Below are positions 34,207 through 52,073 of a stretch of 64,000 bases of DNA, in pieces. The notes under the pieces were generated by a model. The model was not told the DNA's origin. It did no database searches and saw only the letters and a program-made list of their open reading frames with translations. Every line of letters starts with the position of its first letter. Position 1 is the first letter of the stretch. The position numbers and the translations under genes are program-made. This stretch comes from an uncultured Chloroflexia bacterium (GTDB taxonomy: Bacteria; Chloroflexota; Limnocylindria; Limnocylindrales; CSP1-4), in the NCBI GenBank assembly GCA_963757765.1, contig CAVWSL010000013.1, forward strand, positions 65,302-129,301, written 5' to 3'.

Positions 34207-34766
34207 CCGACCCCGACGGGACACCGGTCGGACCCTGGCGACGGCGATCGCGTGCGGTCGCCTATGAGAACGCGTGGATCACGGTCTTCCATGACGAGGT
34301 CGTGCGCCCGGACGGCACCCCCGGCATCTACGGCGTGGTCCATTTCCGGAACAGCGCGGTCGGGGTCGTGGCCATCGATGACCAGGACCGGGTGGCGCTC
34401 GTGGCCCAGCATCGGTACACCCTCGACCGTCGGTCGTGGGAGATCCCGGAGGGCGGGGCCGCACCCGATGAAGGGCCGCTCGCCGGCGCCCAGCGGGAGC
34501 TTCGGGAGGAGGCCGGCGTCGAAGCCGCGGAATGGCGCGAGGTCGCCCGGGTCCACATCTCCAACTCCGTGACCGACGAGCTCGCGACCCTGTACCTCGC
34601 GACCGGCCTGACGCATGGCCCAACCGCGCTGGAGTCGACCGAGATGGACCTGACGCTCGACTGGGTGCCCTTCGACGAGGTGATGGCGATGGTCATGGAT
34701 GGCCGCATCACGGACGCGATGTCGGTGGTGGCACTCCAGCGGGTCGCCCTGGAGCGACCGCGCTAA
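34203..34766 (+). CDS. NUDIX hydrolase (ADP-ribose pyrophosphatase-like)
   Basis: Nudix box G..........AQRELREEAGV. 187 aa. GTGA overlap with the SDR gene. Confidence 0.85.
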   Translation: MTDPDGTPVGPWRRRSRAVAYENAWITVFHDEVVRPDGTPGIYGVVHFRNSAVGVVAIDDQDRVALVAQHRYTLDRRSWEIPEGGAAPDEGPLAGAQRELREEAGVEAAEWREVARVHISNSVTDELATLYLATGLTHGPTALESTEMDLTLDWVPFDEVMAMVMDGRITDAMSVVALQRVALERPR

Positions 34767-34840
34767 CGAAGGTTCGACCCGGCGGGGTGCCGCCGGGTCG
34801 ATGGATGTGCGATGGGTGGCGGGCCTGCGGGGCCCCGCCG

Positions 34841-36307
34841 CTAGGACGCGAGGACCGTGCCGGCCTCGGCTTCGCCCTCCGCGACGACGCCGTCCTCGAC
34901 GTCGAGCTCGGGATGTGCCATCCGCACCTGGCGCGGGATGGCGAACGCCGCCACCGAGCCGAGGGCCACGAACGCGGCGCCGATGAGGATGGCCGGCCTG
35001 AGGCCGTCCACGAACGTGGTCGGGGTCGCGTAGCCGCCGAAGCTGCTGAACACGGAGGCCAGGATGGCCACCCCGAACACACCACCGACCTCACGGATGG
35101 CGTTGTTGGCACCGGATGCCTGTCCCTCCTCCTTCGGTCGGACGGCGCTCAGCACGACGTTCGCGACCGGTGCGAAGAAGAGGCCCATGCCGATACCCGA
35201 GATGATGAACGGCAGCACGAGCTGCGCGTAGTCGACGGTCGGCGTCACGACGAGACCGAGCCACGCGAGGCCGATCGCCTGCATCGCGAGGCCGACACCC
35301 ATGAGCACGCCACCGCCGATGCGGTCGGAGGACGCGCCAGCGATGGGCGCGATGAAGATGGGCGCCAGGGTCCAGGGCAGGATCTTCAAGCCCGCCTGGA
35401 AGGGCGAGTTGTGGAGCACGATCTGGAGGTACTGGCTGAGCAGGAAGATGGCACCGAACATCCCGAAGTACATCAGGAGGGACGCCAGGTTGGCCATCGA
35501 GAAGGCCCGGCTCTTGAAGAAGTAGAGCGGCAGCATCGGCGCGGTCGCGCGTCGCTCCCACCATGCGAAGGCGGTCAGGAGCGCGATGCCGACGGCGAAG
35601 CTGACGAGGATGGTGGCGCTGGTCCAGCCCAGCTCGTTGCCCTTGATGACAGCCCAGACCACGGCCAGCAGGCCGCCGCTGACGAGCAGCACGCCCGGGA
35701 TGTCGAGCTTGTTCGCCGGTCCGCGGCTCTCCGTCAAGCGCAGGAGGCCGAACGGGATGAGGACGAGGCCGATGGGCACGTTGAGCCAGAAGATCCAGTG
35801 CCAGTTGATGCCTTCCACGATGGCGCCACCGACGAGGGGGCCAAGGGCGACAGCCAGACCACCGATGGCGCCCCAGGCGCCGAGCGCCACGCCACGTCGC
35901 TCGGCCGGCACGGCCGCGCTCAGCAGCGTCAGGGTGAGGGGCACCACGAATGCGGCACCGGTGCCCTGGAGTGCACGGGCGATGATGAGCGTCTCGATGC
36001 TGTTGGAGAGCGCGGCGCCGGCCGAGGCGAGCGTGAACAGCGTCAGCCCGGCGACGAACATGCGGCGCCGACCGAAGCGGTCACCAAGGGCGGCCGCAGG
36101 CAGCAACAGCACCGCGAAGGTGAGGGTGTAGGCGTTGACCGTCCACTCCAGGCCTTCGAGGGTGGCGTTGAGGTCGGCCTTGATGGTCGGGAGCGCGGTG
36201 CTCACGACGAGGTTGTCGAGGACCACCATCAGCAGCGCGACGGCCGTGATGACGAAGGTCCAACGGGCGTTGGATCTCGGTTGCTCGGTCAAGTGTCTGG
36301 TCTCCAT
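34841..36307 (-). CDS. MFS transporter, DHA2 (14-TM EmrB/QacA-like) drug:H+ antiporter
   Basis: 488 aa, about 14 hydrophobic helices, LGDRFGRRRMF motif A. Confidence 0.9.
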   Translation of the reverse strand: METRHLTEQPRSNARWTFVITAVALLMVVLDNLVVSTALPTIKADLNATLEGLEWTVNAYTLTFAVLLLPAAALGDRFGRRRMFVAGLTLFTLASAGAALSNSIETLIIARALQGTGAAFVVPLTLTLLSAAVPAERRGVALGAWGAIGGLAVALGPLVGGAIVEGINWHWIFWLNVPIGLVLIPFGLLRLTESRGPANKLDIPGVLLVSGGLLAVVWAVIKGNELGWTSATILVSFAVGIALLTAFAWWERRATAPMLPLYFFKSRAFSMANLASLLMYFGMFGAIFLLSQYLQIVLHNSPFQAGLKILPWTLAPIFIAPIAGASSDRIGGGVLMGVGLAMQAIGLAWLGLVVTPTVDYAQLVLPFIISGIGMGLFFAPVANVVLSAVRPKEEGQASGANNAIREVGGVFGVAILASVFSSFGGYATPTTFVDGLRPAILIGAAFVALGSVAAFAIPRQVRMAHPELDVEDGVVAEGEAEAGTVLAS

Positions 36308-36369
36308 GTCTGTGTGGTTCGTGTCGCCGGGATGTCGGCGTCAGCGGTGGGAGGTGTCCGGGTCGCGGG

Positions 36370-36948
36370 TCACTGCGGCTCTGCCATACATCCCTCTCGA
36401 AGCATGGCGGCCCAGCCATCGGTCGCGTCCAGGACGTCCATCGACGCCATGACGTTGAGGAGCATGCCCCGACCCATGAAGGTGGCGAGGCGGAATGCCT
36501 CGACCCCGGCCACGGATGCGACGTACTCGGTGACCTCGCCGAAGCCTGTCTGGACGGCCGCCCGAACATCGGGGTCGTCGCAGGCCGCGTACGACTGCAT
36601 CTGCATCCGGAGCTTGGTGCCATCCCGGAGCATCTCGAGGTAGGCCTCCCCGATCCAGTGGGTCACGGGCATGTCGGGTGTCCCCTCCTCGACCGCCACA
36701 CGGAAACGATCCAGGGTGTCGTCGAAGCACCGCCGGATGGCGGCCAGGAACAGCTCCTTCTTGGTCCCGTACAACCGGAACAGGTACGGCTGCGAGATGC
36801 CGACGTTGCGGGCGATGGTCTCCGTGGAGGTGCCGTGGAGACCCGTGTCCGCGAACGCTTCCATGGCCGCCTGCAGGATCGCCTCACGGCGGTCGATGGC
36901 TGTCAGGCGCTGGACAGCGGGTGGCGCGACGGATGCGGCAGTGGTCAT
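36370..36948 (-). CDS. TetR/AcrR family transcriptional regulator
   Basis: REAILQAAMEAFADTGLHGTSTETIARNVGISQPYLFRLYGTKKELF. It lies upstream of the MFS gene on the same strand. Confidence 0.85.
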   Translation of the reverse strand: MTTAASVAPPAVQRLTAIDRREAILQAAMEAFADTGLHGTSTETIARNVGISQPYLFRLYGTKKELFLAAIRRCFDDTLDRFRVAVEEGTPDMPVTHWIGEAYLEMLRDGTKLRMQMQSYAACDDPDVRAAVQTGFGEVTEYVASVAGVEAFRLATFMGRGMLLNVMASMDVLDATDGWAAMLREGCMAEPQ

Positions 36949-36956
36949 GCCGGCGC

Positions 36957-36985
36957 ATGTTAGTGATGACTCACAACTACGTCAA
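36957..36985 (-). promoter_or_regulatory. Putative leaderless promoter of the TetR-MFS operon
   Basis: Minus strand: TTGACG (36985-36980), 17-nt spacer, TAACAT (36962-36957), then 8 nt to the ATG at 36948. An ACGTCA-N10-TGACGT inverted repeat overlaps the -35. Confidence 0.45.
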
Positions 36986-37010
36986 CAGGGCAAATGACGT
37001 ATGCCGCTGA

Positions 37011-38246
<1,236 letters not shown>

Positions 38247-38248
38247 GG

Positions 38249-38635
38249 ATGGAGGGACCGATGGTCACCTGGGCACCTCAGCAGCTGTCCCGGTTCGCCG
38301 ACGCCGAGGAGCTGCGCATCTCCTCCCGGCGGCCCGATGGCACCCTGCGACCGTACGTCACCATCTGGTTCGTCCGCCTGGACGACGACCTCTATGTGCG
38401 CTCGGCGTACGGCCCGGACAACGGCCTGTACCGGCACGCCGTCGCATCGGGGCAGGGACGTATCCACGTCCACGGCGTGGAACACGACGTGACCTTCGAG
38501 TCGCCTGAGCCGTCCATGAGTGCGGCCCTCGATCGCGCATATCACCGCAAGTACGACCGGCACCGGGCCACCATCGTCGCCACCGTGATGTCCGCGGACG
38601 CGGCCCGATCGACCATCCGGCTGCTGCCGCGGTAG
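38249..38635 (+). CDS. DUF2255-like small protein
   Basis: Pattern ...IWFVRLDDDLYVRSAYGPDNGLYRHA...GRIHV.G.EHDVTFE......AYHRKY. The start may be the second ATG at 38261, which follows GGAGGGA. Confidence 0.65.
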   Translation: MEGPMVTWAPQQLSRFADAEELRISSRRPDGTLRPYVTIWFVRLDDDLYVRSAYGPDNGLYRHAVASGQGRIHVHGVEHDVTFESPEPSMSAALDRAYHRKYDRHRATIVATVMSADAARSTIRLLPR

Positions 38636-38781
38636 CCCCGGGACCCGCTCGGCAATTCCGGCAGATGTGCGCCCGGTGACTGACCAGACCAGCGAAGGTC
38701 CGTTGGACCACCCGGAAGACCCCCTCGGTGGCCGTGCGATGCGCGGGGCGGCTGGGACGGACACGGGATAGCGAGCCGTTG

Positions 38782-38812
38782 GCCCACTCATGCGCGGGGC
38801 GCATGAGTGGGC
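38782..38812. other. Perfect 14-bp stem / 3-nt loop hairpin, followed by (GGAGCC)x3
   Basis: GCCCACTCATGCGC-GGG-GCGCATGAGTGGGC (38782-38812), with a GGAGCCGGAGCCGGAGCC run at about 38821-38838. It sits in a 570-bp stretch with no convincing gene. Confidence 0.7.
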
Positions 38813-39203
38813 GCCAGCCCGGAGCCGGAGCCGGAGCCGTGCGGCGCCGATTACCATCCGCAACCGATGGATGCGTACGAGGCCGCCAGCCGGGATGGGT
38901 TCGCTGTCGCAAGTCTCGGCGCCGCCGCGGGTACGTGTCGGCCTCCCCTTCGCAGCCCTGTCAGGTGAACCTGCAGGCCGTGCTGCGGTATCCCGTGGCC
39001 GTGAGCCGGGCCGCGGAGGCGATCACCTTGCTCATCGCGGTGCTCGTGGCCTGCACCTTCATGCTCGTGCCCAGCGGGTCGCCGGCGTTGCTGGGCACCG
39101 AGCTCGCCATCCTCGGTGGCGGCGTCGCCATCCTCGTTGGGTACCGAGGCGTGGCACGCCGGGCGGCCATCAGCCCCGAGTGCCTGCTCACCCGTGGCAC
39201 CCG

Positions 39204-39956
39204 TTGACCGGGTTCGAGGCCATCGCGATCGCGGCGGCCGGGCTCGCCGCGGGCGCCATCAACACCATCGTCGGGTCAGGGTCGCTCGTCACCTTCCCGA
39301 CCCTGCTCGCGTTCGGATATCCGCCGCTCGTCGCCAACGTGTCCAACACCGTCGGCCTCGTGCCGGGGGCCATGAGCGGGGTGGTCGGCTACCGTCGCGA
39401 GCTCGTCGGGCAGCGCGCGCGCATGATCCGGCTGGGGACCGCGGGTGTGTTGGGCGGGCTCACCGGCGGCATCCTGCTGCTGGCCGTCCCGGCAAGCGTG
39501 TTCGGCACGGTCGTGCCGTTCCTCATCCTGTTCGCCTGTGTGCTCATGGCGCTCCAGCCCCGCCTCACCCGATACATGAGCAGCCGCGGCCATGCCCGCG
39601 CCGACCATCCGTTGCCGCTGACCATCGGGGTCTATCTCACGGGCATCTATGGCGGCTACTTCGGCGCAGCACAAGGCGTCATCCTCATCACGCTCCTGGC
39701 CATCTTCCTGACGGACGACCTGCAGCGTCTCAACGGTCTCAAGAACGTCATCGCCGCTCTGGTCAATGGCGTGGCGGCCGTCCTCTTCCTGGCCATCGCC
39801 CCGGTCGACCTCCAGGTCGCGCTGCTATTGGCCATCGGCTCCATCGCAGGTGGTCAGCTGGGCGCCTACGTCGGCCGTCGCCTGCCGGCCCCGATCCTGC
39901 GGGCGGCGATCGTCACGGTGGGCACTGTCGTGGCCATCTGGCTGCTCGTCCGATAG
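39204..39956 (+). CDS. TauE/SafE family sulfite/anion exporter-like membrane protein
   Basis: Contains AAGAINTIVGSGSLVTFPTLL and about 7-8 TM helices. 250 aa from the TTG at 39204, so the start is uncertain. Confidence 0.75.
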   Translation: MTGFEAIAIAAAGLAAGAINTIVGSGSLVTFPTLLAFGYPPLVANVSNTVGLVPGAMSGVVGYRRELVGQRARMIRLGTAGVLGGLTGGILLLAVPASVFGTVVPFLILFACVLMALQPRLTRYMSSRGHARADHPLPLTIGVYLTGIYGGYFGAAQGVILITLLAIFLTDDLQRLNGLKNVIAALVNGVAAVLFLAIAPVDLQVALLLAIGSIAGGQLGAYVGRRLPAPILRAAIVTVGTVVAIWLLVR

Positions 39957-39960
39957 CGCG

Positions 39961-39989
39961 TTGACAAGGGCTCGGCACCCCGGTATCGT
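39961..39989 (+). promoter_or_regulatory. Sigma-70/SigA-type promoter of the aromatic supraoperon
   Basis: Consensus TTGACA (39961-39966), 17-nt spacer, TATCGT (39984-39989). It begins 5 nt after the tauE-like stop. Confidence 0.6.
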
Positions 39990-39999
39990 CCCGACCCTG

Positions 40000-40029
40000 A
40001 TGACTCAGCATTTCTGGTTTTACGCCTAG
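40000..40029 (+). CDS. Aromatic-rich leader peptide MTQHFWFYA (9 codons)
   Basis: ATG ACT CAG CAT TTC TGG TTT TAC GCC TAG. The ATG lies 10 nt after the -10 box, so the ORF is nearly leaderless. It has four consecutive Phe-Trp-Phe-Tyr codons and is followed by hairpins and a U-tract terminator. Confidence 0.6.
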   Translation: MTQHFWFYA

Positions 40030-40083
40030 CGGGTACGGATGCCGCCGAGCAGCGCTCGGCAGCAGAGGCAGTCGTGCCCGCAG

Positions 40084-40118
40084 ACGCAGGAGCCGCAAGG
40101 CCCCTGCGTTTTTGTTTT
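40084..40118 (+). terminator. Intrinsic terminator (attenuator) upstream of the DAH7PS gene
   Basis: ACGCAGGAGCC-GCAA-GGCCCCTGCGT (10 of 11 bp paired, GNRA loop), followed by TTTTTGTTTT. It ends 28 nt before the ATG at 40147. Confidence 0.65.
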
Positions 40119-40146
40119 CCCGGCATTGCACAGGGCGGTGAGCAGG

Positions 40147-41502
40147 ATGATCGTGGTGATGCGGACCGGCGTCGACAGCGCGCTGGTGGAGGACGTCAAG
40201 AAGGTCATCGAGGCGGAGGGTCTCGAGGCCTACGTCATGGTCGGAGAGGAACGCAGCGTGATCGGTGTCGTTGGCGCCGGCGTGGAACGCGTCGAGCACG
40301 TGGCGTCGATGCCCGGCGTGGAGCAGGTCATGCGGATCTCCAAGCCGTACAAGCTGGCGAGCCGCGAGCACCATCCCGACCGGACGAGGGTCAAGGTCCG
40401 CGACGTGGTCATCGGTGGCGGCGCCTCGATCGCGGTCATGGCCGGACCATGCGCAGTCGAGTCGCGCGAGCAGCTGACCGCGACGGCACGCTGGGTGAAG
40501 CGCGAGGGTGCGACCATCCTGCGGGGTGGCGCCTTCAAGCCTCGCAGCTCCCCGTACGCGTTCCAGGGGATGGAGGTCGAAGGGCTCAAGCTGCTCGCGG
40601 ATGTCCGCGAGGAGGTCGGGCTGCCCATCGTGACCGAGGTCACCAACCCGGCCGACGTGCCCATCTTCGAGGACTACATCGACATGCTCCAGGTGGGAGC
40701 CCGGAACATGCAGAACTTCGTGCTGCTCAAGGCGGTCGGCAGGAGCCGGCTGCCGGTGCTGCTCAAGCGCGGCCTCTCCGCGACCATCGAGGAGTGGCTG
40801 ATGGCGGCCGAGTACATCCTCGCCGCGGGCAACCCCAACGTCGTGATGTGCGAGCGCGGCATCCGGAGCTTCGATCCGTCCACCCGCAACACGCTCGACC
40901 TGACCGCCGTGCCGGTGCTCCGCGAGCGGACCCACCTGCCGGTCATCGTCGACCCCTCGCACGCCACCGGACACCGCTCCCTGGTGCGCCCGATGGCCGT
41001 CGCCGGTGCCGCCGCGGGAGCCGACGGGCTGATCATCGAGGTCCACCCCGATCCGCCCCGCGCCCGTTCGGACTCCGAGCAGTCCCTCTCATTCCCCGAG
41101 TTCGGCGACCTGATGGACGACCTGCGCCGCTTCGAGTACCTGCGTCGGCCGTCCGCCCCGCAGGTGAGCGCTCAGGCCATCGTGCCCGGCGACATGGCCC
41201 GTCTCCGCGGCCGTATCGACGATGTGGATATGCGCCTGGCGGCGCTCGTCGAGGAGCGGGCGCAGCTCGCGGTGGCGGTCCAGCAGACGCGCAACGAGGA
41301 CGATCATGGCCACGACGTCGGCCGTGAGCGGGCACTCATCGAGCGCGCGACCGCATCCGAGGACAGCGTCCTGACCTCCGATGAGCGCGAGCAGGTGTAT
41401 GCGGCGATCATCCGGGCTGCGCGTTCCGCACAGCGCCGTCAGGCCGCGGCCGCCGCCGCCGCCCAGGCGGAGCAGCTGCCGACCGTGGGCTCCGTGGCGT
41501 GA
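40147..41502 (+). CDS. aroF: Type I-beta DAHP synthase with an N-terminal ferredoxin-like/ACT-like domain and a C-terminal AroQ chorismate mutase domain
   Basis: N-terminal domain: MIVVMRTGVDSALVEDVKKVIEAEGLEAYVMVGEERSVIGVVG. Catalytic core: GPCAVES, LRGGAFKPRSSPY, QVGARNMQN and DPSH. C-terminal domain: LRGRIDDVDMRLAALVEERAQLAVAV...GRERALIE. Confidence 0.85.
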   Translation: MIVVMRTGVDSALVEDVKKVIEAEGLEAYVMVGEERSVIGVVGAGVERVEHVASMPGVEQVMRISKPYKLASREHHPDRTRVKVRDVVIGGGASIAVMAGPCAVESREQLTATARWVKREGATILRGGAFKPRSSPYAFQGMEVEGLKLLADVREEVGLPIVTEVTNPADVPIFEDYIDMLQVGARNMQNFVLLKAVGRSRLPVLLKRGLSATIEEWLMAAEYILAAGNPNVVMCERGIRSFDPSTRNTLDLTAVPVLRERTHLPVIVDPSHATGHRSLVRPMAVAGAAAGADGLIIEVHPDPPRARSDSEQSLSFPEFGDLMDDLRRFEYLRRPSAPQVSAQAIVPGDMARLRGRIDDVDMRLAALVEERAQLAVAVQQTRNEDDHGHDVGRERALIERATASEDSVLTSDEREQVYAAIIRAARSAQRRQAAAAAAAQAEQLPTVGSVA

Positions 41503-42899
41503 CCGACGAAGGGGACCCGGCCAGCGGCCCGGGAGACCACGCCACGCCGGGTCGCGTCGAGCCGGCCGCCCGCATCCGGGGCGAGCTGCGTCTGCCCGGC
41601 GACAAGTCCATCGCGCACCGGGCGCTGCTGTTCGATGCTCTCGGCGAAGGCGAGGCCGACGTGCGCATCCCAACGCCGGGTGGGGATATCCGGAGCACCG
41701 CGGGCGTGCTCACGACGCTGGGTGCCATCCTCGAGGAGTCGCGCGGCCATGACGGCGTGATGCGCTATCGGGTGCGCGGCGGCGGCACGCGAAGCGCGGC
41801 CTGCCTGCCGGGCGTCGGTGGTGAGCTGCTCGACCACGGCAACGCCGGCACGAGTATGCGGCTCTCGATGGGCGCGCTCGCAGGGAGGGTCGCTGCGGCG
41901 CGCCAGATCGGGGACGCGTCGCTGTCGCGCCGCCCGATGGAACGTGTCGCGGTGCCGCTGCGTCAGATGGGAGCCTCGGTCTCGACGGTCGACGGCCACG
42001 CGCCAGTGACCGTGCGGGGCGCGCGACCCCTGCGGGCGCTGCATCACGAGCTCCCGGTGGCGAGTGCCCAGGTGCTGGGCGCGGTCAGCCTCGCCGCCCT
42101 GGCCGCGGACGGGCGGACGACCATCACGACCCCGGGCCCGACCCGCGATCACACGGAGCGGCTGCTGGCCTGGCTCGGCGTCCCGGTCTCGCGCGACGGC
42201 TTCACCACGACCGTGGCCGGTCCGACCGGCTTCGCGGCGCGCGACATCGACGTCCCGGGCGACATCTCCTCCGCCGCCTTCTGGATGGCCGCGGCCGCCC
42301 TCCATCCCGATGCGGAGCTGCGCATCCGCTCCGTCGGCCTCAACCCCAGCCGGACCGCCGTCATCGACGTGCTGCGCGAGATGGGCGCCGATATCACCGT
42401 TGTGGCAGGCGACCCGAACGGCCCGGAACCCGTCGGCGACCTGGTCATCCGGGGCGGCCAACCGATCCATGGCATCCACCTCGGTGGCATCCGGGTGGCC
42501 GACCTCATCGACGAGCTGCCCCTCCTGGCCATCGTCATGGCGGGCGCCGACGGGCCATCCGAGCTGCGTGACGCCGGGGAGCTGCGGACCAAGGAATCCG
42601 ATCGCATCGCGCTCGTCGTCGACGGGCTCTTGGCTATCGGGGTCGACGCGGAGGAGCTCCACGACGGCTGGCGCGTCACGCCCGGCGAGGCACGCAGCGG
42701 ACGACCGGCGGGGGCCACCATCGTGACCGACGGCGACCACCGCATCGCGATGGCCTTCGCGATCGCTGCGATCACTGGCGTCGCTGATGGCGTGATCGTC
42801 GATGACCCAGCCTGTGCCGAGATCTCCTACCCCACGTTCTGGAGCGACCTGGCGCTGCTGACCGATGGCAGCGGCCCGTCAGCAGGAACCACCCGATGA
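41499..42899 (+). CDS. aroA: 3-phosphoshikimate 1-carboxyvinyltransferase (EPSP synthase, class II-like motif)
   Basis: Contains LPGDKSIAHRALL, NAGTSMRL, LRTKESDRI and DHRIAMAFAIA. 466 aa. Confidence 0.95.
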   Translation: MTDEGDPASGPGDHATPGRVEPAARIRGELRLPGDKSIAHRALLFDALGEGEADVRIPTPGGDIRSTAGVLTTLGAILEESRGHDGVMRYRVRGGGTRSAACLPGVGGELLDHGNAGTSMRLSMGALAGRVAAARQIGDASLSRRPMERVAVPLRQMGASVSTVDGHAPVTVRGARPLRALHHELPVASAQVLGAVSLAALAADGRTTITTPGPTRDHTERLLAWLGVPVSRDGFTTTVAGPTGFAARDIDVPGDISSAAFWMAAAALHPDAELRIRSVGLNPSRTAVIDVLREMGADITVVAGDPNGPEPVGDLVIRGGQPIHGIHLGGIRVADLIDELPLLAIVMAGADGPSELRDAGELRTKESDRIALVVDGLLAIGVDAEELHDGWRVTPGEARSGRPAGATIVTDGDHRIAMAFAIAAITGVADGVIVDDPACAEISYPTFWSDLALLTDGSGPSAGTTR

Positions 42900-44191
42900 A
42901 CCGGCTCCGGCTCCTCACCGCCGGTGAGTCGCACGGTCCGGGCATGAGCGGCATCCTCGATGGGCTGCCGGCCGGGTTGCGTGTCTCGACCCGGGAGGTC
43001 GACCGCGACCTGGCCCGTCGGCAGCACGGCTATGGCAGCGGCCGACGGATGCGGATCGAGCGCGACCGGGTAGCGTGGAACGCCGGCCTCCGCTTCGGCC
43101 GCACGCTCGGCTCGCCGCTCGCCTTCAGCGTCGCGAACCTGGACTGGGCGAGCTGGACCGAGCGGATGTCGGTGGAGCCCATCCCCGCGGGTCGGCGACC
43201 GAAGCCCATCACGCTCGCTCGGCCGGGCCACGCGGACCTCGCGGGCGCCATCAAGTACGACACGCCCGATATCCGGGAGGTGCTGGAGCGGGCGTCGGCA
43301 CGTTCCACGGCACCTCGTGTGGCGGCCGGCTCCGTCTGCCGGCAGCTGCTCGCGGCGACCGGGGTCACGGTCTGGAGCTTCGTCGACCAGCTGGGACCCA
43401 TCCGCGCATTCCCCGACGTCGACGACCCCCTCGACCGCATCGGGAATGGCTGGTGGCAGCGGGACCGCGTCGACCCCACGCCACTCCGGTGCCCGGACCC
43501 GGTCGCCGAGGCGGCGATGATGGCCGAGGTGGATGCCGTCATCGAGGCGGGCGACTCCATCGGTGGCAGCTTCGTGGTGGTGGTCGAGGGGATGCCCATC
43601 GGGGTGGGCTCGAATGCCGAATGGGACACCCGCCTGGACACCGCACTCGCCGCCGCGACCATGGGCATCCAGGCGGTCAAGGGTGTCGAGATCGGTCTCG
43701 GCTTCGGGGTGCTCGCGCGCCGGGGCAGCGCGGTCCACGACGAGGTCGACCCGGCGCGGCCGTCGTGGGGCCGGCGCTCGAATCGCGCCGGGGGTGTCGA
43801 GGGCGGCATGAGCAACGGCGAGCCGATCGTCGTGCGCGCTGCGGTCAAGCCGGTCGCGACCCTGCGCAAGCCGCTCGACTCGGTCGACCTCGCGACCGGT
43901 CACCCGGGACGCGCCCACATCGAGCGCAGCGATGTGGCCATCCTGCCCCGCGCCGCGGTCGTGGGCGAGGCGATGGTGTCACTGGCCGTCGCGGACGCGC
44001 TGCTGTCCACGTTCGGTGGCGACACGATGGGTGATGTCCTGGCCGCGGTCCGGCGTCGCCGGCTTCGCTCCCGCGGCCCGCGTGGCATGTCCGTGAGCGG
44101 ACCGGGGTCGGGCGATGACGCGCCGGTGCTCCCCTCGTTGCCCGAGGATGCCGCAGCCGAAGCCACGCCCGTGGTCGGCACGGACGCATGA
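42896..44191 (+). CDS. aroC: Chorismate synthase
   Basis: Contains LTAGESHGPG, GRRMRIE, RPGHADLAG, ERASARSTA and GGMSNGEPI. Confidence 0.95.
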   Translation: MNRLRLLTAGESHGPGMSGILDGLPAGLRVSTREVDRDLARRQHGYGSGRRMRIERDRVAWNAGLRFGRTLGSPLAFSVANLDWASWTERMSVEPIPAGRRPKPITLARPGHADLAGAIKYDTPDIREVLERASARSTAPRVAAGSVCRQLLAATGVTVWSFVDQLGPIRAFPDVDDPLDRIGNGWWQRDRVDPTPLRCPDPVAEAAMMAEVDAVIEAGDSIGGSFVVVVEGMPIGVGSNAEWDTRLDTALAAATMGIQAVKGVEIGLGFGVLARRGSAVHDEVDPARPSWGRRSNRAGGVEGGMSNGEPIVVRAAVKPVATLRKPLDSVDLATGHPGRAHIERSDVAILPRAAVVGEAMVSLAVADALLSTFGGDTMGDVLAAVRRRRLRSRGPRGMSVSGPGSGDDAPVLPSLPEDAAAEATPVVGTDA

Positions 44192-44970
44192 CCGATGCAC
44201 TCCGGTTCGGGCTGCTCGGCCAGGGCATCGCGTACACGGCGTCCCCCGCGATGATGGCCGCCGCGTTCGCGGCCCTGGGATTGCCCCACACCTACGACAT
44301 CCGGGATGTCGCGCCATCCGACCTGCCCTCGGCGGTGGATGCGCTGCGGCGGCCCGACGCGGGCGGCGCGAACGTGACCATCCCCCACAAGGCGGCGGTC
44401 GCGCGGCTGGTCGACGACATCTCGCCTGATGCGCAGCAGGTGGACGCGGTCAATGTCGTCGTCCCCGATGCCGGCCGGCTCATCGGCCATAACACCGACC
44501 TGCCGGCGCTCATGGACGAGCTGCGACTGCTGCGCCCGAATGGGCTCGGTCGGGTCGTGCTGCTGGGTGCCGGTGGGGCGTCACGCGCGGTCGAGCTCGC
44601 GGTCATGCGGCTCGACGGCGCGCTCGTCCGAGTCACTCGTGCCGATGGCTCATGGGACCGGCTCCCCGAGCATCTCGCGGCCGCGGACCTGGTCATCAAC
44701 GCAACGCCTGTCGGCACCGGCTCGGATGACACGCCCGTGCCCGTGGGTCTGCTGCGGCCAGATCTCGCCGTGTTCGACCTCGTCTATCGGCCGAGCCCGA
44801 CGCGCCTGGTGCGCGAGGCCCGCGCGGCGGGCGCTGCGGCCCGTGGCGGCGGCGGGATGCTCCTGGGCCAGGCGTGGAGGAGCCTCGAGCTGTGGCTCGG
44901 CGTGCCCGCACCCATCGACGCCATGCGCACCGCGCTGCGCGACGCCGTGGGAGCGGACGTCGATGCCTGA
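44188..44970 (+). CDS. aroE: Shikimate dehydrogenase
   Basis: Contains SPAMMAAAFAALGL, NVTIPHK, NTD and LLGAGGASRA. 260 aa. Confidence 0.9.
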   Translation: MTDALRFGLLGQGIAYTASPAMMAAAFAALGLPHTYDIRDVAPSDLPSAVDALRRPDAGGANVTIPHKAAVARLVDDISPDAQQVDAVNVVVPDAGRLIGHNTDLPALMDELRLLRPNGLGRVVLLGAGGASRAVELAVMRLDGALVRVTRADGSWDRLPEHLAAADLVINATPVGTGSDDTPVPVGLLRPDLAVFDLVYRPSPTRLVREARAAGAAARGGGGMLLGQAWRSLELWLGVPAPIDAMRTALRDAVGADVDA

Positions 44971-46597
44971 CACCATCACGCTCGTGGGGCTGTCCGCCAG
45001 CGGCAAGAGCAGCGTCGGCCGCCTGGTCGCGGATGCGCTGGGTCGACCGTTCATCGACCTCGACGCGCGCATCCGGGCCAGGACCGGCAGCTCACCCGCG
45101 CGCATCATCGAGCGTGACGGCGAGGCCCACTTCCGGCAGATCGAGGCGGCCGAGGTCCGGCGCGCGGCGGATGTCCCGGGCGCCGTCATCGCCACTGGGG
45201 GCGGAGCCGTCATCGACCCGCTCAACCGCTGGGCGCTGTGGGAGGCGGGGACGTCGGTCTGGCTCGACGCCCCCGACGAGCGGCTCGCGGAGCGGGTCCG
45301 TCGCTCTGGCGAGCGCCGGCCGCTCGTCGCCCGCGATCCGCTCGCCGCGCTGGCCCGTCTGCGCGCCGCCCGTGAACCGTTCTACGCCGCCGCGGATCAC
45401 CGGGTGGAGTCGGCCGGCAGCACCCGGACCGTCGCCGCCGCTGTGGTGGCCGCCGCCTCGCGGCCCCGGTCCAGCGCTCGTCGGCTGTATGACACGCACG
45501 CTCGGCGGGACCATCCGATGGGTCCCCGGACGGCGCACGTGATCTACGGCCGCGACCTGGACGCGGCGATGCTGGGGCCGGTCGTCACGGACGTCTCCAC
45601 GGGCACACCCGTGGTCGTGGCCGACGAACGGGCAGCCGCGGCGCTCCCAGGTCTCATGGCCGCGTTCCCCGGGGAGCGGCAGCTACGCATCGCGGCCGGC
45701 GAACGAGGCAAGCGGATGCGCTCCGTCGAGCGGCTGCTGGAGTCGGCCGCGGCGATGCGCGCGGAGCGTGGCGATGCCTGGATCGCGATGGGCGGCGGCA
45801 CGACCGGCGACCTCGTGGGCACGGCTGCAGCGTTCTACCTCCGGGGAGCGCCGCTCATCCAGGTGCCCACGACCTGGCTCGCCCAGTCCGATTCCGCCAT
45901 CGGCGGCAAGGTCGCCGTCGACCTGGCCGCGGCCAAGAACGCGGCAGGCGCGTTCTGGCCACCGGTGGCGGTCATCGGCGATGTGGCGGCGCTCCGGACC
46001 CTGCCTCGCCAGCTGCTGCTGGACGGTCTCGCCGAGGTGCTCAAGTCGGCCATCATCGGCGACCCCTGGCTCTGGTCGCTGCTCGAGACTCGCGGGGAGG
46101 CAGCGCTGGGCGAGGTGCCGGGCGGCACGCCCGACGAAGCAGCGCGGTACGCGATGGTCGAGCGTGCGATGCGCCTCAAGCTGGGAGTCGTGGACCGCGA
46201 CCCATTCGAATCGGGCGAGCGCCGGACCCTCAACCTGGGCCACACCCTGGGCCATGCGCTGGAGATCGAGAGCCGATACCGGCTGCCACACGGCCAGGCG
46301 GTCGTCCTGGGCCTGCGGGCGGTGACCGCCATCGCCGAGGGCCGGGGCGCCGAGCCCGGCCTCTCGGAGCGTATCGATGACCTGCTCCACCGCCTGGGTT
46401 ACCGGCTCACCCGCGTCTTCGATCGGAGCGCCGTCCGGGATGCGCTCGGATCCGACAAGAAGCGGGTCCGCGGCCGCCAGCGCTGGATCCTGCCGATGGG
46501 CATCGGTACCGTCGTCGACGTCGATGATGTGACCGAGTCGGAGCTCGACCTCGCCCTCGACCGCATCACGCCCTTCGCCCGTGGTGACCGGGCATGA
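44963..46597 (+). CDS. aroKB: Fused shikimate kinase / 3-dehydroquinate synthase
   Basis: One 544-aa frame. The AroK part has LVGLSASGKSSVGR (P-loop) and ATGGGAV. The AroB part has GGGTTGDLVG, SAIGGKVAVD, LNLGHTLGHALE and HGQAV. Confidence 0.9.
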   Translation: MPDTITLVGLSASGKSSVGRLVADALGRPFIDLDARIRARTGSSPARIIERDGEAHFRQIEAAEVRRAADVPGAVIATGGGAVIDPLNRWALWEAGTSVWLDAPDERLAERVRRSGERRPLVARDPLAALARLRAAREPFYAAADHRVESAGSTRTVAAAVVAAASRPRSSARRLYDTHARRDHPMGPRTAHVIYGRDLDAAMLGPVVTDVSTGTPVVVADERAAAALPGLMAAFPGERQLRIAAGERGKRMRSVERLLESAAAMRAERGDAWIAMGGGTTGDLVGTAAAFYLRGAPLIQVPTTWLAQSDSAIGGKVAVDLAAAKNAAGAFWPPVAVIGDVAALRTLPRQLLLDGLAEVLKSAIIGDPWLWSLLETRGEAALGEVPGGTPDEAARYAMVERAMRLKLGVVDRDPFESGERRTLNLGHTLGHALEIESRYRLPHGQAVVLGLRAVTAIAEGRGAEPGLSERIDDLLHRLGYRLTRVFDRSAVRDALGSDKKRVRGRQRWILPMGIGTVVDVDDVTESELDLALDRITPFARGDRA

Positions 46598-47028
46598 GGA
46601 TCCTGCTGCTCAACGGGCCGAACCTGGGACGGCTGGGACTGCGCCAGCCGGAGATCTACGGCTCGACGACCCTGGCCCAGGTCATCGAAGCGAGCCGCGA
46701 CCGGGCCACGGCGCGTGGCTCGACCCTGGATGCCTTCCAGTCCAACCATGAGGGAGCGCTCATCGATCGCCTCGAGCAGCGCGACTACGATGGCGTGGTC
46801 ATCAATCCCGGCGCGTTCACCCACTACAGCTACGCGTTGCACGACGCGTTGGTGGCCGCGGAGACCCCGGCCATCGAGATCCACATCAGCGACATCCGGA
46901 CCCGCGAAGCGTGGCGACGGGTGTCGGTCATCCAACCTGCCGTGACCGGCACCGTGATGGGCAAGGGCTGGCAGGGCTACGTGGAGGCTGTGGACCGACT
47001 CATCGACATCGTGGAGGGCACACCGTGA
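46594..47028 (+). CDS. aroQ: Type II 3-dehydroquinate dehydratase
   Basis: Contains MRILLLNGPNLGRLGLRQPEIYG, FQSNHEG, INPGAFTHYS and EIHISD. Confidence 0.95.
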   Translation: MRILLLNGPNLGRLGLRQPEIYGSTTLAQVIEASRDRATARGSTLDAFQSNHEGALIDRLEQRDYDGVVINPGAFTHYSYALHDALVAAETPAIEIHISDIRTREAWRRVSVIQPAVTGTVMGKGWQGYVEAVDRLIDIVEGTP

Positions 47029-48508
47029 TCGCACCGGTGGCACCTGGGACCGGGGACGCGCTCGACGCGGACCGCGGACCGGACGGCGGCAGGATCGCTG
47101 TCATCGAGCTGAGCGCTGATACGCTCACACCCGTCGCAGCCGCGTTGCGGCTCAAGGATCGCCTCGCGTTCATCCTCGAGAGCGTCGAGGGCGGCGCGCG
47201 ATACGGGCGCTACTCGTTCGTGGGCGTCCGGGGCCGAACGCTCATCGTCGACCAGGGCGAGGCGGTGGTGTGGGACGCTCACTACCGGGAGCTGGAGCGG
47301 TTCGCGGAAGCCGACCCGCTCGAGGCGCTCCGACGGGTGCTCCCGCCGCGCGCTGAGGCATCCGGCTTCCCATTGCCGCTCGCAGCAGGGGTCGGCTTCG
47401 TGTCCTATGACGCTGCCGCCCGGTGGGAGAAGCTGCCCGTTCCCGACGCCGACCCGGTGGGCCTGCCCGAGGCGCTCTTCCACATGCCCTCGGTCGTCAT
47501 CGCCTTCGACCACCTGGCCCAGACCGCGACCCTCGCGACACTGCTCGACGGAGGCGCCGACGGGCGTCTGGCATCGGTCGCCGCGCAGCTCGCGGTCCCG
47601 TCCGCGGATGAGGCGCCGACGCGCCTGTCAGGGGCCGGCCAGCGGGCCGTCCGCCACGTGCCACCGGCCGCGGACCCGGTCTACGAGGCTGGCGTGGCCA
47701 AGCTCGTCGAGGACATCCACGCGGGCGAGATGCTCCAGGTCGTGCCCGCGCGACGGTTCACGGTGCCCAATCGAGCCCCCGCGCTGACCATCTACCGTGC
47801 GTTGCGGCGCATCAACCCATCGCCCTACCTGTTCGCGCTCGACCTGGGCCCGGGCAGCTCCATCCTGGGAGCCTCGCCGGAGCTGCTCGTGCGGGTGCGC
47901 GACGGCGAGGTCGTCACCCGGCCGCTCGCCGGGACGCGGCCACGCTCCGACGATCCGGTGCGCGACGCTGAGCTGGAGGCGGACCTGCGCGCCGACGAGA
48001 AGGAGCTGGCCGAGCACGCCATGCTCGTGGACCTGGCTCGCAACGATGTCGGGCGGGTGGCCGAGCCGGGCAGCGTCGAATGGCCGCTGCTGTATGGCGT
48101 GGAGCGCTACTCCCACGTGATGCATCTCGTCTCGGAGGTGCGCGGACGGCTGCGCTCCGACCGCGACGCGTTCGATGCGGTCCGCGCGACGTTCCCCGCG
48201 GGCACCCTCAGTGGGGCGCCGAAGGTGCGTGCGATGCAGGCCATCGCCGAGGTCGAAGGCGCTCGACGGGGCGCGTACGGCGGCGCGGTCGGCTACTTCT
48301 CGCCCGACGACACGGAGATCGCGATCACCATCCGGAGCGTGGTGCTCCGGGACGGGGCCGCCTTCGTGCACGCCGGTGCGGGCGTTGTCGCCGACTCGAT
48401 CCCCGCTCGTGAGTCGGCGGAGGTCGCGGCGAAGGCCGGGGCGGTGCTGACCGCGCTGGCCCAGGCAGAAGCGACGATGGCGGCTGCGGCCGGGGAAGGG
48501 GCCGAGGC

Positions 48509-48512
<4 letters not shown>
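47025..48512 (+). CDS. trpE: Anthranilate synthase component I
   Basis: Contains LESVEGGARYGRYSF, PSPY, GTLSGAPKVRAM and RGAYGGAVGYF. GTG start overlapping the aroQ stop. Confidence 0.9.
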
Positions 48513-49153
<641 letters not shown>

Positions 49154-49167
49154 AGCCACGTCCGAAG

Positions 49168-49197
49168 GCCTGCCCGAAGGTCCCTGTTCGGGCAGGC
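49168..49197 (+). terminator. Hairpin after trpG (no U-tract)
   Basis: GCCTGCCCGAA-GGTCCCTG-TTCGGGCAGGC forms a perfect 11-bp stem. It starts 15 nt after the trpG stop. Confidence 0.5.
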
Positions 49198-49212
49198 GGG
49201 ACGCCTGCTACC

Positions 49213-51375
49213 GTGCCCGGGATGTCAGGATCGCACGCACACGAGGGTGCTCGACCGGGTCCTGCCGCCGATACCCGCGCCCGACCCTTGGCTGCCCCTG
49301 CCCGCGCGGACGTCGCACCCCGGGCACCCGAGGTGCTCGAGCCGGTGTCCCTGGAGCCGGCGCGGATGACCGAGCTGCTGACACGTCCCGCGGACGGCAC
49401 GACGGCGCCGACGCCACCACCCCACGGACTCTCCCGAGGACAGATGCTCGCCCTCCAGCGGACCGTGGGCAATCGCGCCGTCACCAGCGTCATGCGCTCG
49501 GTCGCGCAACGGGTCGCCATCAAGGAGCCGACCAGGACCGAGACGCTCTACAACACGCCGGTCGCGGGTGGCCAGGCCACGGCCAACCAGTACACGATGA
49601 ACCCGCAGTACGAGATGACCCGCAGCGGTGACACGGGCGTGACCGTCACGGTGCGTATCAAGTTCCTGAGTCAGGCTCGCAATGGCGTCGACCCCACCTC
49701 GCCCGGAGCGCCCGCGGGCACCCCCGCGCTCGGCACGCTGCTCGGATCGCCCACCGAGATCCCGGCGTCCGATCCGCGTCGGGCATGGGCCACCGGCGTG
49801 GCCGCCGGCGGCGTCGCACATTGGAACGGCCACCTGACACTCGTCGGCGAGGAGTGGAACCTCACCGAGGACAACACCAGGAAGCGGCTGCCGGTCACAT
49901 TCCAGTCGGTGCCGGTCTTCGGCATCGGCGAGACAGCGCATTCGCAGATCATCGTCCATCCCTCCTCGGTGGTCGCCGGCTCACCCGGTCAGCCCATCGA
50001 CGCCGGCAACTACTACATGAACAAGGGCAACTACGGCGGTGACGAGAAGGTCATCGCCGCGCACGAGTACGGCCACCTGCTGGGTATCCCCGACGAGTAC
50101 AGCCAGAGCAACGAGCAGCTGAACGCGCTCATCCATCAGGCAGCTCCCGGCACGGCGCCGAGCGCCCGAGCGGCGCTGGACCGCATCACGGTCCAGCGGA
50201 TGGTCCTCGCGGCGCTCCGGCAGCCGATGTACAGCCAGCTGTCAGCGACGCTGCCGGAGGTCACGGAGGCGCTGCGGGCCAAGCGGCAGCTGGTCAAGAC
50301 ACGCATGGCTGCCGCGGCGCGGGAGAGTGTCGTGAGCGCCGAGGTTCGCGACGAGCTGCAGGCACAGCTGACCGTGGGCGCAGACTCCAAGCTCGGCGCG
50401 AGCGTGCCAGGCGTCGTCGCGTTCGAGACGACCGCGAACTTCAGCAACGTCAGCCGGGCGGACGAGGGAGTGGAAGCGGGCTTCTCCACCGCGGCCCTGA
50501 CCAAGCACATCGGGGACGGCTACTGGAAGGCGTTCCTCGATGCCGGCAGCGCCAACGTCGCGGTCGCCGGCCTCGGCGACGTCCGCCTGAACGTCCAGGG
50601 CTCGGTCCCGGCCACGACAGCCACTGGTGGCGCCCAGGCAGGCCCAGCCGCAGGACTGGCCACGAGCGCGGTGGGGGCAACCGCGGCGCCGGGGTTGCCC
50701 ACGATCGCGCCGCCGACGAGCCTGACCGGGAAGCTGACCGCCCTGCCAGCGACCTGGGGAGCCGCGGGTTCGGCGGTCGAGACCGGCGTCACCGCCGCCG
50801 CGTTCTCGGGCAAGATGGTGGCCACGCTCAAGGCTGCAGCCGCGAGTGCGGCGGCCGCGGCCGCCGCACTGCCACCCGGGGTCGTGCCGAGTCCCAGGAT
50901 GCAGCGTGCACGAGAGCTCTACGCGCGGGCCTACCAGATGGTCACCAACGCAGCGCGGACGGCGTCGCGGCAGGTGGCCACGGAGCTCATCGCGACCACC
51001 ATCGACCCCATCCTGACGGCGAGCGTCAGCGACCTCCAGACGACCATCGACACGGAGGTCGGTCGGATCATGACCACACCCGCGGCGGGTGTCGCGGCGC
51101 TCGGTACGCCCGATCCGAACATGGTCGCGATGGTGGCGGCGATGAAGGCGCGGCTCGACGCGGACAAGGCCGCGACCGCGGGTGGTGGTCGCGACCCACT
51201 CGGTGCCCCGGGCGGCACGGCCCCTGCCCAGGACGTGACCTACAGCTACCAGGGACTCATGGGCTCGAACGCGACGACCGCGCTCCGACCCGACCAGTTC
51301 GGCCCCATGGTGACCCAGTTCAACAGCAAGCTCACCACCCTGTTCGAGAAGAAGTTCACGGCCGAGGTCAGATGA
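49213..51375 (+). CDS. Large (about 720 aa) Ala-rich protein with an N-terminal LQRxxGNxAV motif and a snapalysin-like HExxHxxGxPDEY zinc-peptidase motif
   Basis: LALQRTVGNRAVTSV lies at aa 80-94 (nt 49453-49482 cover LQRTVGNRAV). AAHEYGHLLGIPDEY is at nt 50062-50100. The composition is protein-like (N, Y, K, I, F present) despite long Ala/Gly/Thr tracts. No signal peptide was seen. The start is GTG 49213 or ATG 49222. Confidence 0.65.
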   Translation: MPGMSGSHAHEGARPGPAADTRARPLAAPARADVAPRAPEVLEPVSLEPARMTELLTRPADGTTAPTPPPHGLSRGQMLALQRTVGNRAVTSVMRSVAQRVAIKEPTRTETLYNTPVAGGQATANQYTMNPQYEMTRSGDTGVTVTVRIKFLSQARNGVDPTSPGAPAGTPALGTLLGSPTEIPASDPRRAWATGVAAGGVAHWNGHLTLVGEEWNLTEDNTRKRLPVTFQSVPVFGIGETAHSQIIVHPSSVVAGSPGQPIDAGNYYMNKGNYGGDEKVIAAHEYGHLLGIPDEYSQSNEQLNALIHQAAPGTAPSARAALDRITVQRMVLAALRQPMYSQLSATLPEVTEALRAKRQLVKTRMAAAARESVVSAEVRDELQAQLTVGADSKLGASVPGVVAFETTANFSNVSRADEGVEAGFSTAALTKHIGDGYWKAFLDAGSANVAVAGLGDVRLNVQGSVPATTATGGAQAGPAAGLATSAVGATAAPGLPTIAPPTSLTGKLTALPATWGAAGSAVETGVTAAAFSGKMVATLKAAAASAAAAAAALPPGVVPSPRMQRARELYARAYQMVTNAARTASRQVATELIATTIDPILTASVSDLQTTIDTEVGRIMTTPAAGVAALGTPDPNMVAMVAAMKARLDADKAATAGGGRDPLGAPGGTAPAQDVTYSYQGLMGSNATTALRPDQFGPMVTQFNSKLTTLFEKKFTAEVR

Positions 51376-52073
51376 TGCGTCGGCTCGCGACGTTCAGGTG
51401 GCAGACGCCGGCACCGACCTCCGTCGACGAGGAGCTGGTGCTGTTCGATGACGGGACCACCTGGCTCGTGGTCCGCGGCCCGCGCCGCGAGGACGCCACC
51501 ATCGGCAGCTACCGGTCGCGGCCCGCCGACGCGGACGCGCGCCAGCTCAAGGCAGCGGGCGATGGGCCCCATTCCTTCGACCTCCGGGCCCCAACGGACC
51601 CCGCTCGCGCCGACCTGCTGGCGCTCGCTGAGCGGGTCGCGGAGGGCTGTCGGGCGAGCCCGCGGGCCGTGGTCACGTTCCATGCCCATCTGCCGGCCGC
51701 CGAGCCGGACGGCACTGCCGGCATCACCCTGCTGGCGGTCGCGGGTGGCGTCGACCCGGTGGAGTTCGAGCTCGATCCCGGGCCATCCTCGATCCACTAT
51801 CTCGACCGCAATGGCCAGCCGATGTCCTGGCAGGAGCTGCCGACGCCCCAGACCGGGTTCGTGACCCCAGACGCGGAGGGCCTCGGCGGCCTCCACCGGG
51901 CCGCCGTCATCCGGCCGGGCGCCTACGGTGCCATGACGTTCGCCAGCGTCCGTCCGGCTGGCGCAGCATCCGCCGCGATCCTGGTCGCTGGCTGGCTCCG
52001 GGACGCGTTCCCGGATGCGCCGAACCCGGAACGGTTCCTCGTGCGCACCGCATCGACGCCCACGCCTTCCTAG
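51372..52073 (+). CDS. Hypothetical 233-aa protein translationally coupled to the metallopeptidase-like gene
   Basis: ATGA overlap at 51372-51375. Beta-rich-looking sequence (ELVLFDDGTTWLVVRG...AVVTFHAHL...GITLLAVAGGVDPVEFELDP). No family was recognised. Confidence 0.55.
   Translation: MMRRLATFRWQTPAPTSVDEELVLFDDGTTWLVVRGPRREDATIGSYRSRPADADARQLKAAGDGPHSFDLRAPTDPARADLLALAERVAEGCRASPRAVVTFHAHLPAAEPDGTAGITLLAVAGGVDPVEFELDPGPSSIHYLDRNGQPMSWQELPTPQTGFVTPDAEGLGGLHRAAVIRPGAYGAMTFASVRPAGAASAAILVAGWLRDAFPDAPNPERFLVRTASTPTPS

Follow-up and report, generated by a model that had tools for sequence, protein, structure and literature searches.

In Corynebacterium glutamicum, the leader of aroF (aroR) carries the residues Phe-Tyr-Phe, and passages in two published accounts report that stalling at Phe limitation raises transcription (Mentz 2013, PMC4046766; Neshat 2014 as summarized in PMC11802643); the former also cites a leader peptide without a ribosome binding site for ilvBNC of the same species (PMC4046766). 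In Deinococcus deserti, leaderless leader peptides of about ten residues, with transcription start sites (TSSs) mapped to the start codon itself or to the nucleotide preceding it, are enriched in the cognate residue and belong to amino-acid biosynthesis or tRNA synthetase mRNAs, for which attenuation was predicted (de Groot 2014, PMC4007540). In the E. coli trpL and pheL leaders (RF00513, RF01859), segment 1 of a 1:2 / 2:3 / 3:4 system contains the regulatory codons, and the antiterminator and the terminator have a strand in common. Here we describe a leader upstream of a DAH7PS gene in 64,000 nt of DNA (hereafter the window) from an uncultured Chloroflexia bacterium (GTDB lineage Chloroflexota; Limnocylindria; Limnocylindrales; CSP1-4), corresponding to positions 65,302-129,301 of the forward strand of contig CAVWSL010000013.1 in assembly GCA_963757765.1. 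The leader consists of a promoter, a short open reading frame (ORF), a 53-nt three-helix hairpin (P1) and a terminator stem-loop with its U tract (T). From comparison with related loci, we consider it likely that this leader is a ribosome-mediated transcription attenuator of the Chloroflexota aro-trpEG operon, reading charged tRNA-Phe, tRNA-Trp and tRNA-Tyr.

By its published description, the aroR-aroF arrangement is like that of the window, with a short ORF of aromatic codons directly 5′ of a DAH7PS gene. However, the window peptide adds an invariant Trp that is in step with trpEG, the phylum is different, no antiterminator pairing was detectable, and the operon goes further, with the entire shikimate pathway, trpEG and a chorismate mutase (CM) fusion. 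With trpL and pheL, the leader shares end-product codons, an intrinsic terminator ahead of the first structural gene, and ribosome position as the presumed signal, but its codons are unpaired, P1 and T share nothing, and the ORF has 8-9 codons and lacks a Shine-Dalgarno (SD) sequence. It differs from the D. deserti leaders in phylum and in RNA, and also in that its TSS is placed from a −10 box lying 8-11 nt off the start codon. In the collection of papers searched, none linked Chloroflexi, leader peptides and attenuation; a 2010 survey by Lopatovskaya et al. (cited in PMC4833913) may cover related cases. The reading proposed here would extend leader-peptide attenuation to the Chloroflexota, in Limnocylindria-like, mostly uncultured soil and freshwater lineages.

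The leader and its conservation

The promoter, the 9-codon ORF, the apical hairpin and the terminator were all found where the original prediction, made from the letters of the window, had placed them. The elements, all on the + strand, are as follows.

39961-39966, +: −35 hexamer TTGACA, read from the sequence and shared by relatives (TTGAC in a few loci)
39984-39989, +: −10 hexamer TATCGT, 17-nt spacer from the −35 hexamer; TAnnnT in relatives
40000-40029, +: leader ORF MTQHFWFYA and its TAG stop codon; ATG start 10 nt past the −10 box, with no SD and no room for one
40012-40023, +: regulatory codons TTC TGG TTT TAC (Phe-Trp-Phe-Tyr), from conservation in 30 loci
40029-40081, +: P1, from folds and covariation; the stop-codon G is part of its first pair
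40029-40038 with 40072-40081, +: helix P1a, from the fold
40040-40043 with 40067-40070, +: helix P1b, from the fold
40044-40050 with 40054-40060, +: helix P1c, the apical hairpin GCCGAGC-AGC-GCTCGGC at the tip of P1, from the fold and covariation
40061-40066, +: 3′-side internal loop AGCAGA of P1, from the fold
40084-40109, +: T stem-loop ACGCAGG-a-GCC GCAA GGC-c-CCTGCGT, −18.5 kcal/mol, with covariation in its upper stem
40109-40118, +: U tract TTTTTGTTTT, ending 28 nt before the DAH7PS ATG at 40147
40119-40146, +: variable spacer from the U tract to the DAH7PS ATG, with SD GGTGA at 40137-40141

The promoter agrees with the consensus at 10 of 12 positions and is the only + strand site of this quality within 36000-52000. 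Its spacing from the ORF suggests a 5′ untranslated region of only a few nt, and hence near-leaderless translation.

Thousands of relatives of the DAH7PS-CM protein were found, the named ones being metagenome-assembled genomes of Chloroflexota or Candidatus Limnocylindria/Limnocylindrales. Among the matches listed from a genome scan, most of which came from distant phyla, L001-L003 were close relatives; a metagenome scan contributed about 30 more at 70-92% protein identity, and two long contigs (L161, L162) were examined for genomic context. In every close relative with enough upstream DNA (30 loci), the entire cassette of promoter, ORF, P1 and T is present at fixed spacing: TTGACA stands 61-67 nt upstream of the leader stop codon, the −10 box 8-11 nt (mostly 10) from the start codon, and the U tract 78-84 nt past the stop codon. 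The flanks, upstream of the −35 hexamer and from the U tract to the DAH7PS start (21-85 nt), cannot be aligned, so that conservation of the cassette is selective, and the variable spacer before the DAH7PS ATG falls outside the conserved switch. Recurrence of this kind, as these alignments present it, is far beyond chance.

The original prediction had proposed that orthologous upstream regions be searched for mini-ORFs rich in Phe, Trp and Tyr, and the outcome in the 30 loci is strongly positive. The frame of the leader ORF is kept throughout, with 8 or 9 codons, an ATG or GTG start and an invariant TAG stop, which in close relatives is directly followed by CGGGTACGAGGC. The window peptide devotes four of its nine codons to aromatic residues, and each of the 19 distinct peptides has at least one Phe, at least one Trp and at least one Tyr (for example MTRYWYFS, MTYQWFYG, MSYMWFYV, VNPQFWFYG, MTTFFWYYT, MQSSFWWYA and MVRYWSFS). 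TGG stands four codons before the stop in 30/30 loci, while codons −5, −3 and −2 (counted from the stop) are mostly TTY or TAY, with the synonymous TTC/TTT and TAC/TAT both in use. At codons −5 and −2, the second bases change together (14 U/A, 12 A/U in a scan of column pairs), exchanging Phe...Tyr for Tyr...Phe, so that both residues are retained. On this comparison, the ORF is conserved in the way of a translated sensor, not in that of an RNA motif. Its segment shows no more structure than its shuffles and, if anything, would seem to be maintained unstructured. A single 9-codon sensor appears to integrate three amino acids in order to gate the whole common pathway. A second ORF, starting at GTG 40074 with GAGG 5 nt upstream (ATG in one subclade), was considered and rejected, as its length ranges from 7 to >100 aa and its frame past the P1-T spacer is not conserved.

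Folding and covariation support both RNA structures. The fold of 39996-40146 reaches −73.2 kcal/mol (z = −4.1), better than all 200 dinucleotide shuffles, and RNAalifold predicts P1 and T, and nothing else, from 28 distinct leaders. In the alignment of these leaders, 97.7% of the cells in P1 and T are paired and 10 pairs show double changes; none of 500 shuffles reaches any of five covariation measures, and partners slid by 1-3 columns pair at 35-42%. Within P1c, pair 52:61 is AU in 14 leaders, GC in 13 and CG in 1, and pairs 49:64, 50:63, 51:62 and 53:60 also change on both sides. In the upper stem of T, pair 100:109 is CG in 12 and GC in 11, and pair 101:108 is CG in 20 and UA in 6. Three stretches do not vary in sequence across the relatives: P1a, the internal loop on the 3′ side (GCAGAGGCA), and ACGCAGG / CCUGCGU in the lower T stem. 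The internal loop and 3′ strand of P1 (40061-40081, columns 66-86 of alignment A2), reading GCAGAGGCA.UCGUGCCCGC, stay the same while the apical stems covary. An Rfam cmscan of 39000-41000 with E up to 10 gave as its best overlapping match an unrelated small RNA at 17 bits against a threshold of 50, a result that excludes a T-box, a riboswitch and the Trp, Phe, His, Leu and Thr leader families listed there.

T had been put forward as the only strong U-tract terminator of the window, whose G+C content is 70%, and a less strict scan covering both strands of the entire window agrees, T being the sole hairpin followed by a U tract. A consensus terminator scan had no match at T because of the internal A/C mismatch in its stem. 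The U tract of T is also the sole run of at least five T on either strand of the 64 kb; counting runs of at least five T (or A), the + strand has a single one and the − strand has none, as compared with about 5 per strand expected from composition by our estimate. As no other hairpin with a U tract was found in the window, most genes there must terminate transcription otherwise.

Leader codons and operon content

Pfam assignments agree with the downstream DAH7PS-CM, shikimate-pathway and anthranilate synthase genes of the original prediction, and the gene content predicts chorismate, prephenate and anthranilate as products. The genes, all assigned by Pfam, are as follows.

40147-49153, +: controlled operon
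40147-41502, +: DAH7PS (FL domain, catalytic domain and CM_2)
41499-42899, +: aroA
42896-44191, +: aroC
44188-44970, +: aroE
ending at 46597, +: fused aroK-aroB
46594-47028, +: aroQ
ending at 48512, +: trpE
48509-49153, +: trpG

From their overlapping or abutting ends, we infer that these genes are co-transcribed. Gene order in L161 and L162 is identical to that of the window.

A second family of leaders (type II) was found 5′ of other Chloroflexota DAH7PS genes, whose products are 53-59% identical and have no CM domain. It is represented by L005, L006, L011, L012, L016-L019, L065, L164 (9849-9971) and L165 (9850-9971). The type II ORF has 11 codons, M..FYFRCPA, and a TGA stop (variants IYRFTCPA, YYFRYPA, FFYFLSPA and LFFYRGPA); its Phe-Tyr-Phe motif is that of C. 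glutamicum aroR. The RNA has a P1-like hairpin followed by a terminator GCAGAGG...CCUCUGC-U6. A covariance model (R1) built from the type I leaders alone has a single match in the window, at 129 bits, and matches all type II leaders over their full length with E of 1e-5 to 1e-10, which makes the two types one RNA family. The family is unlisted in Rfam, and R1 could be used to annotate it in metagenomes. When the two types are aligned by the model, their aromatic codons are equidistant from the base of P1 although the stop codons differ in position by 9 nt: the UAG stop of type I lines up with UGC, a Cys codon of type II, and the type II ORF extends 9 nt into the 5′ strand of P1a. Between the types, P1a has undergone compensatory shifts (G-C to C-G, U.G to C-G) against an unchanged 3′ strand UCGUGCC. 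This segment of P1 is common to the sister family too, despite its different pairing partner.

Trp is absent from all 11 type II peptides (0/11). The two type II operons that were checked (L164, L165) contain DAH7PS, aroA, aroE, aroC, aroKB, aroQ and a separate CM gene, without trpE or trpG, whereas trpE-trpG stand at the end of the operon in 3/3 cases of the Trp-containing type (the window, L161, L162). In this small sample, 3 versus 2 full operons, leader Trp codons appear to track trpEG exactly as a charged-tRNA sensor predicts. Within it, Trp codons occur only where trpEG is in the operon, a clean comparative demonstration that leader codon content follows operon content. Together with the ORF frame kept in 30 loci, the 19 peptides with Phe, Trp and Tyr, and the conserved terminator and operon, this Trp-less leader before an operon lacking trpEG speaks for the candidate leader-peptide attenuator that had first been proposed.

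Ribosome position and termination

In the attenuator that we favor, transcription would start a few nt 5′ of the ATG at 40000, and a ribosome would translate MTQHFWFYA without an SD while RNA polymerase makes P1 (40029-40081) and then T (40084-40118). When all three aromatic aminoacyl-tRNAs are plentiful, the ribosome would reach the TAG, whose G forms the first pair of P1, P1a would be unwound, and transcription would terminate at T. Scarcity of any one aminoacyl-tRNA would instead stall the ribosome 2-5 codons before the stop, its front edge no more than 4 nt into P1, and with the stalled ribosome parked at the base of a closed P1 the polymerase would read through into the DAH7PS-CM gene.

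The geometry of the leader is consistent with this scheme. With standard footprints, a ribosome waiting at any of the regulatory codons, four in all, has its front edge somewhere from 3 nt before P1 to 4 nt into it, which leaves P1 closed; a ribosome at the stop codon must open P1a, the TAG lying at the base of P1 in type I and the TGA 9 nt inside P1a in type II. What is fixed is the distance from the aromatic codons to the base of P1, not that from the stop codon to P1. Constrained folds, with a ribosome mask ending 11 nt after the first base of the codon in the A site, left P1 intact with the A site at codon −5 or −4 (Trp) and four pairs shorter with the A site at codon −2, while P1a was lost with the stop codon in the A site. 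Ribosome geometry therefore indicates that the switch being operated is between closed and open P1. We infer that closed P1 leads to read-through and open or vacated P1 to termination, a direction taken from the logic of a biosynthetic operon.

None of the regulatory codons is in a conserved pair, P1 and T have no nucleotide in common, and the folds, masks and shuffles gave no statistical support to any antiterminator sharing a strand with T, so that a defining element of a classical attenuator is missing. T is in the minimum-energy structure under every ribosome mask in both leader types, and the best alternative folds without T are 4-15 kcal/mol worse and no better than those of shuffles. 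The spacing of 10 nt between the −10 box and the ATG makes it probable that the transcript is not strictly leaderless, and efficient initiation has to be assumed. The lack of sequence change in P1a, in the internal loop and in the lower stem of T hints at interactions beyond those identified. All of these points weigh against the attenuator. The description of the locus as a classical trpL/pheL architecture is not supported: the codons are unpaired, P1 and T do not overlap, folding with ribosome masks, suggested as a check of the original prediction, produced no alternative that disrupts T, and two antiterminator candidates did no better than shuffles.

Of these two candidates, one ("P0") joined the aromatic codons to the 5′ arm of T, which is rich in purines, and appeared in most folds computed before the 3′ arm is made; shuffled ORFs did equally well or better (5.7 vs. 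5.4 pairs, −8.9 vs. −10.1 kcal/mol). The other paired the internal loop and the 3′ strand of P1a with the arms of T when the 5′ strand of P1a was masked ("AT"); it lay 4-12 kcal/mol above the T state, shuffles equaled it and its register was not conserved. A 2:3 antiterminator as in trpL was rejected as well, since T formed each time in both types with masks at the Trp codon, the −2 codon and the stop. An alternative hairpin inside P1, GGCA(C)/(G)UGCC, was found in both types, is absent from the type I sequences L105 and L111 and makes no contact with T; it may hold P1 open after passage of the ribosome. A scan of column pairs for covariation outside P1 and T returned only noise and the Phe/Tyr codon swap.

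Within the attenuator reading, three ways of connecting P1 to T were weighed. The one that we prefer, tentatively, is steric bridging by closed P1. P1 would fold away 53 nt and bring the parked ribosome and the rigid P1 helix to within 0-4 nt of the 5′ base of T, where completion of the lower T stem in the exit channel of the polymerase would be hindered; opening of P1a or departure of the ribosome would then let T be completed. In E. coli pyrBI, a ribosome close behind the polymerase blocks the terminator hairpin without a competing helix, and the leader ORF runs through the terminator. The bridging model resembles pyrBI in relying, as we read it, on ribosome proximity and not on a competing RNA helix, but the window ORF ends 55 nt upstream of T, and such proximity would need P1 to loop out the intervening RNA. 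The gap from P1 to T is 2 nt in the window, 0-4 nt in type I overall and 2-7 nt in type II, so that the model fits the sister family less well, and we know of no direct precedent for it; both points count against it. Somewhat less weight is given to a non-canonical or kinetic competitor helix that lies beyond the folding methods used, and an action of P1 on the polymerase, directly or via a factor, seems unlikely. For the broader claim that both Chloroflexota leader families are attenuators without an RNA antiterminator, with P1 as a bridge looping out about 50 nt, we would express considerable doubt. If true, such a P1-bridge attenuator would be a structurally new coupling of ribosome position to intrinsic termination. 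A conserved peptide and terminator with no detectable antiterminator would in any case make this a compact (about 120 nt) system for ribosome-controlled termination without strand competition.

Other explanations were considered as well. P1 could be the real sensor, as the site of a protein or small ligand or as an RNA acting on RNA polymerase in the manner of HK022 put, with the mini-ORF being secondary or merely tuning the folding of P1. The failure to detect an RNA antiterminator is in keeping with this, and the contrast between covarying apical stems and an unvarying P1a, internal loop (3′ side) and lower stem of T suggests constraints beyond pairing. However, Rfam at E up to 10 returned only noise, the internal loop differs between the leader types (GCAGAGGCAC vs. 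GGGGGCACGG), and an irrelevant peptide would leave the reading frame, the start codon, the retention of Phe, Trp and Tyr, and the correlation of Trp with trpEG unexplained, which makes the proposal improbable. The polarity of the switch could also be reversed: a ribosome that has reached the stop codon would hide the P1a 5′ strand, and the freed 3′ strand and internal loop (GCAGAGGCA...GUGCCCGC) would pair with the arms of T, so that smooth translation of the leader gives read-through while a stalled or absent ribosome gives termination. The best folds obtained when T pairs are penalized do use this pairing, the gap to the T state shrinks to 4-9 kcal/mol with the 5′ strand of P1a masked, as compared with 11-15 when it is free, and GCAGAGG in the internal loop is similar to GCAGGAG in the 5′ arm of T. 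Against it, the pairing is no more stable than with a shuffled loop-plus-3′-strand segment (P from 0.03 to 1.0) and its register varies among relatives; it would also turn on a biosynthetic operon when the products are abundant, and it gives no account of Trp codons that track trpEG. We regard this scheme as highly improbable.

Control could finally be post-transcriptional, or T could be a constitutive leaky terminator, with the stalled ribosome or P1 altering the stability or translation of the read-through mRNA; alternatively, the 120-nt product could be an independent small RNA or micro-protein. T is present in all computed states, as expected here, and in some relatives the sequence after the U tract complements the 5′ arm or loop of T or the 5′ strand of P1. 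That complementarity is inconsistent (mean z −0.8, significant in 3/11), the spacer from T to the ATG varies in both length and sequence, and aromatic codons matched to the operon point to a cis-acting amino-acid sensor, so that little credence is left for either version. We thus return to the ribosome-mediated attenuator as the likely explanation of the locus.

Bases just 3′ of the U tract are complementary to part of the leader farther upstream, both in the window (40040-40045 with 40122-40127; AUGCCG with CGGCAU) and after the U tracts of L017, where GGUCAUCG pairs with CGAUGACC, and L106, where GCAGAGGU pairs with ACCUCUGC. Complementarity of this region to the 5′ arm or loop of T, striking in L017, L065 and L016, was rejected as a general feature, being significant in only three of 11 type II leaders. 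Such complementarity could refold the read-through mRNA.

Related leaders and neighboring sequences

Aromatic-rich mini-ORFs of 20-30 codons also lie within 400 nt 5′ of more distant type I-beta DAH7PS genes in many phyla, and each of those folded has a downstream hairpin with a U tract. They include MINTGYFTFTNFYFWYGFYFRPSPRVEV in Geobacter/Geomonas (Desulfobacterota), MFQTHASSFTYFSYRYWSFSPIR in Acidobacteriota, MKRSWFRYFWFFYFTG... in Planctomycetota and MQQNFWRFYGYRP... in Nocardiopsis (Actinomycetota), and Syntrophaceae and Gemmatimonadota also carry one. The loci are as follows.

L004, L008, L013, L014, L021, L023, L033, L034, L038, L051, L055: 5′ of distant DAH7PS genes
L063, L068, L069, L074, L077, L078, L118, L130, L135, L140: further loci of the same kind

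R1 gave weak full-length matches 5′ of the DAH7PS gene in Syntrophaceae and Geobacter loci. A leader that samples all three aromatic amino acids had been singled out as unusual; the presence of Phe, Trp and Tyr in all 19 peptides bears out its mixed character, but its rarity was overstated, as mixed aromatic leaders before type I-beta DAH7PS genes are common and the finding is to that extent less surprising. Their wide spread merits a systematic survey.

The DAH7PS protein encoded at 40147-41502 combines an N-terminal ferredoxin-like (ACT-like) domain and a C-terminal chorismate mutase domain with the catalytic domain (PF18152 + PF00793 + PF01817), a three-part arrangement common to all of the best 120 database matches. 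Ferredoxin-like and chorismate mutase domains are known as alternative regulatory add-ons of DAH7PS, and a protein that has the two together may deserve attention.

Upstream of the leader, the neighbor is an unrelated gene for a TauE/SafE membrane protein that ends at 39956. Long ORFs with no Pfam match flank the operon at 49213-51375 (720 aa), 34532-36643 (703 aa) and 37184-38158 (324 aa); at 70% G+C, some of these may be spurious. In one relative (L162, 8865-9764 and 12749-13972; L163), the operon is split by an IS110-family transposase gene inserted on the opposite strand between aroA and aroC, and the same relative (L162) has an rve integrase gene just 5′ of the leader.

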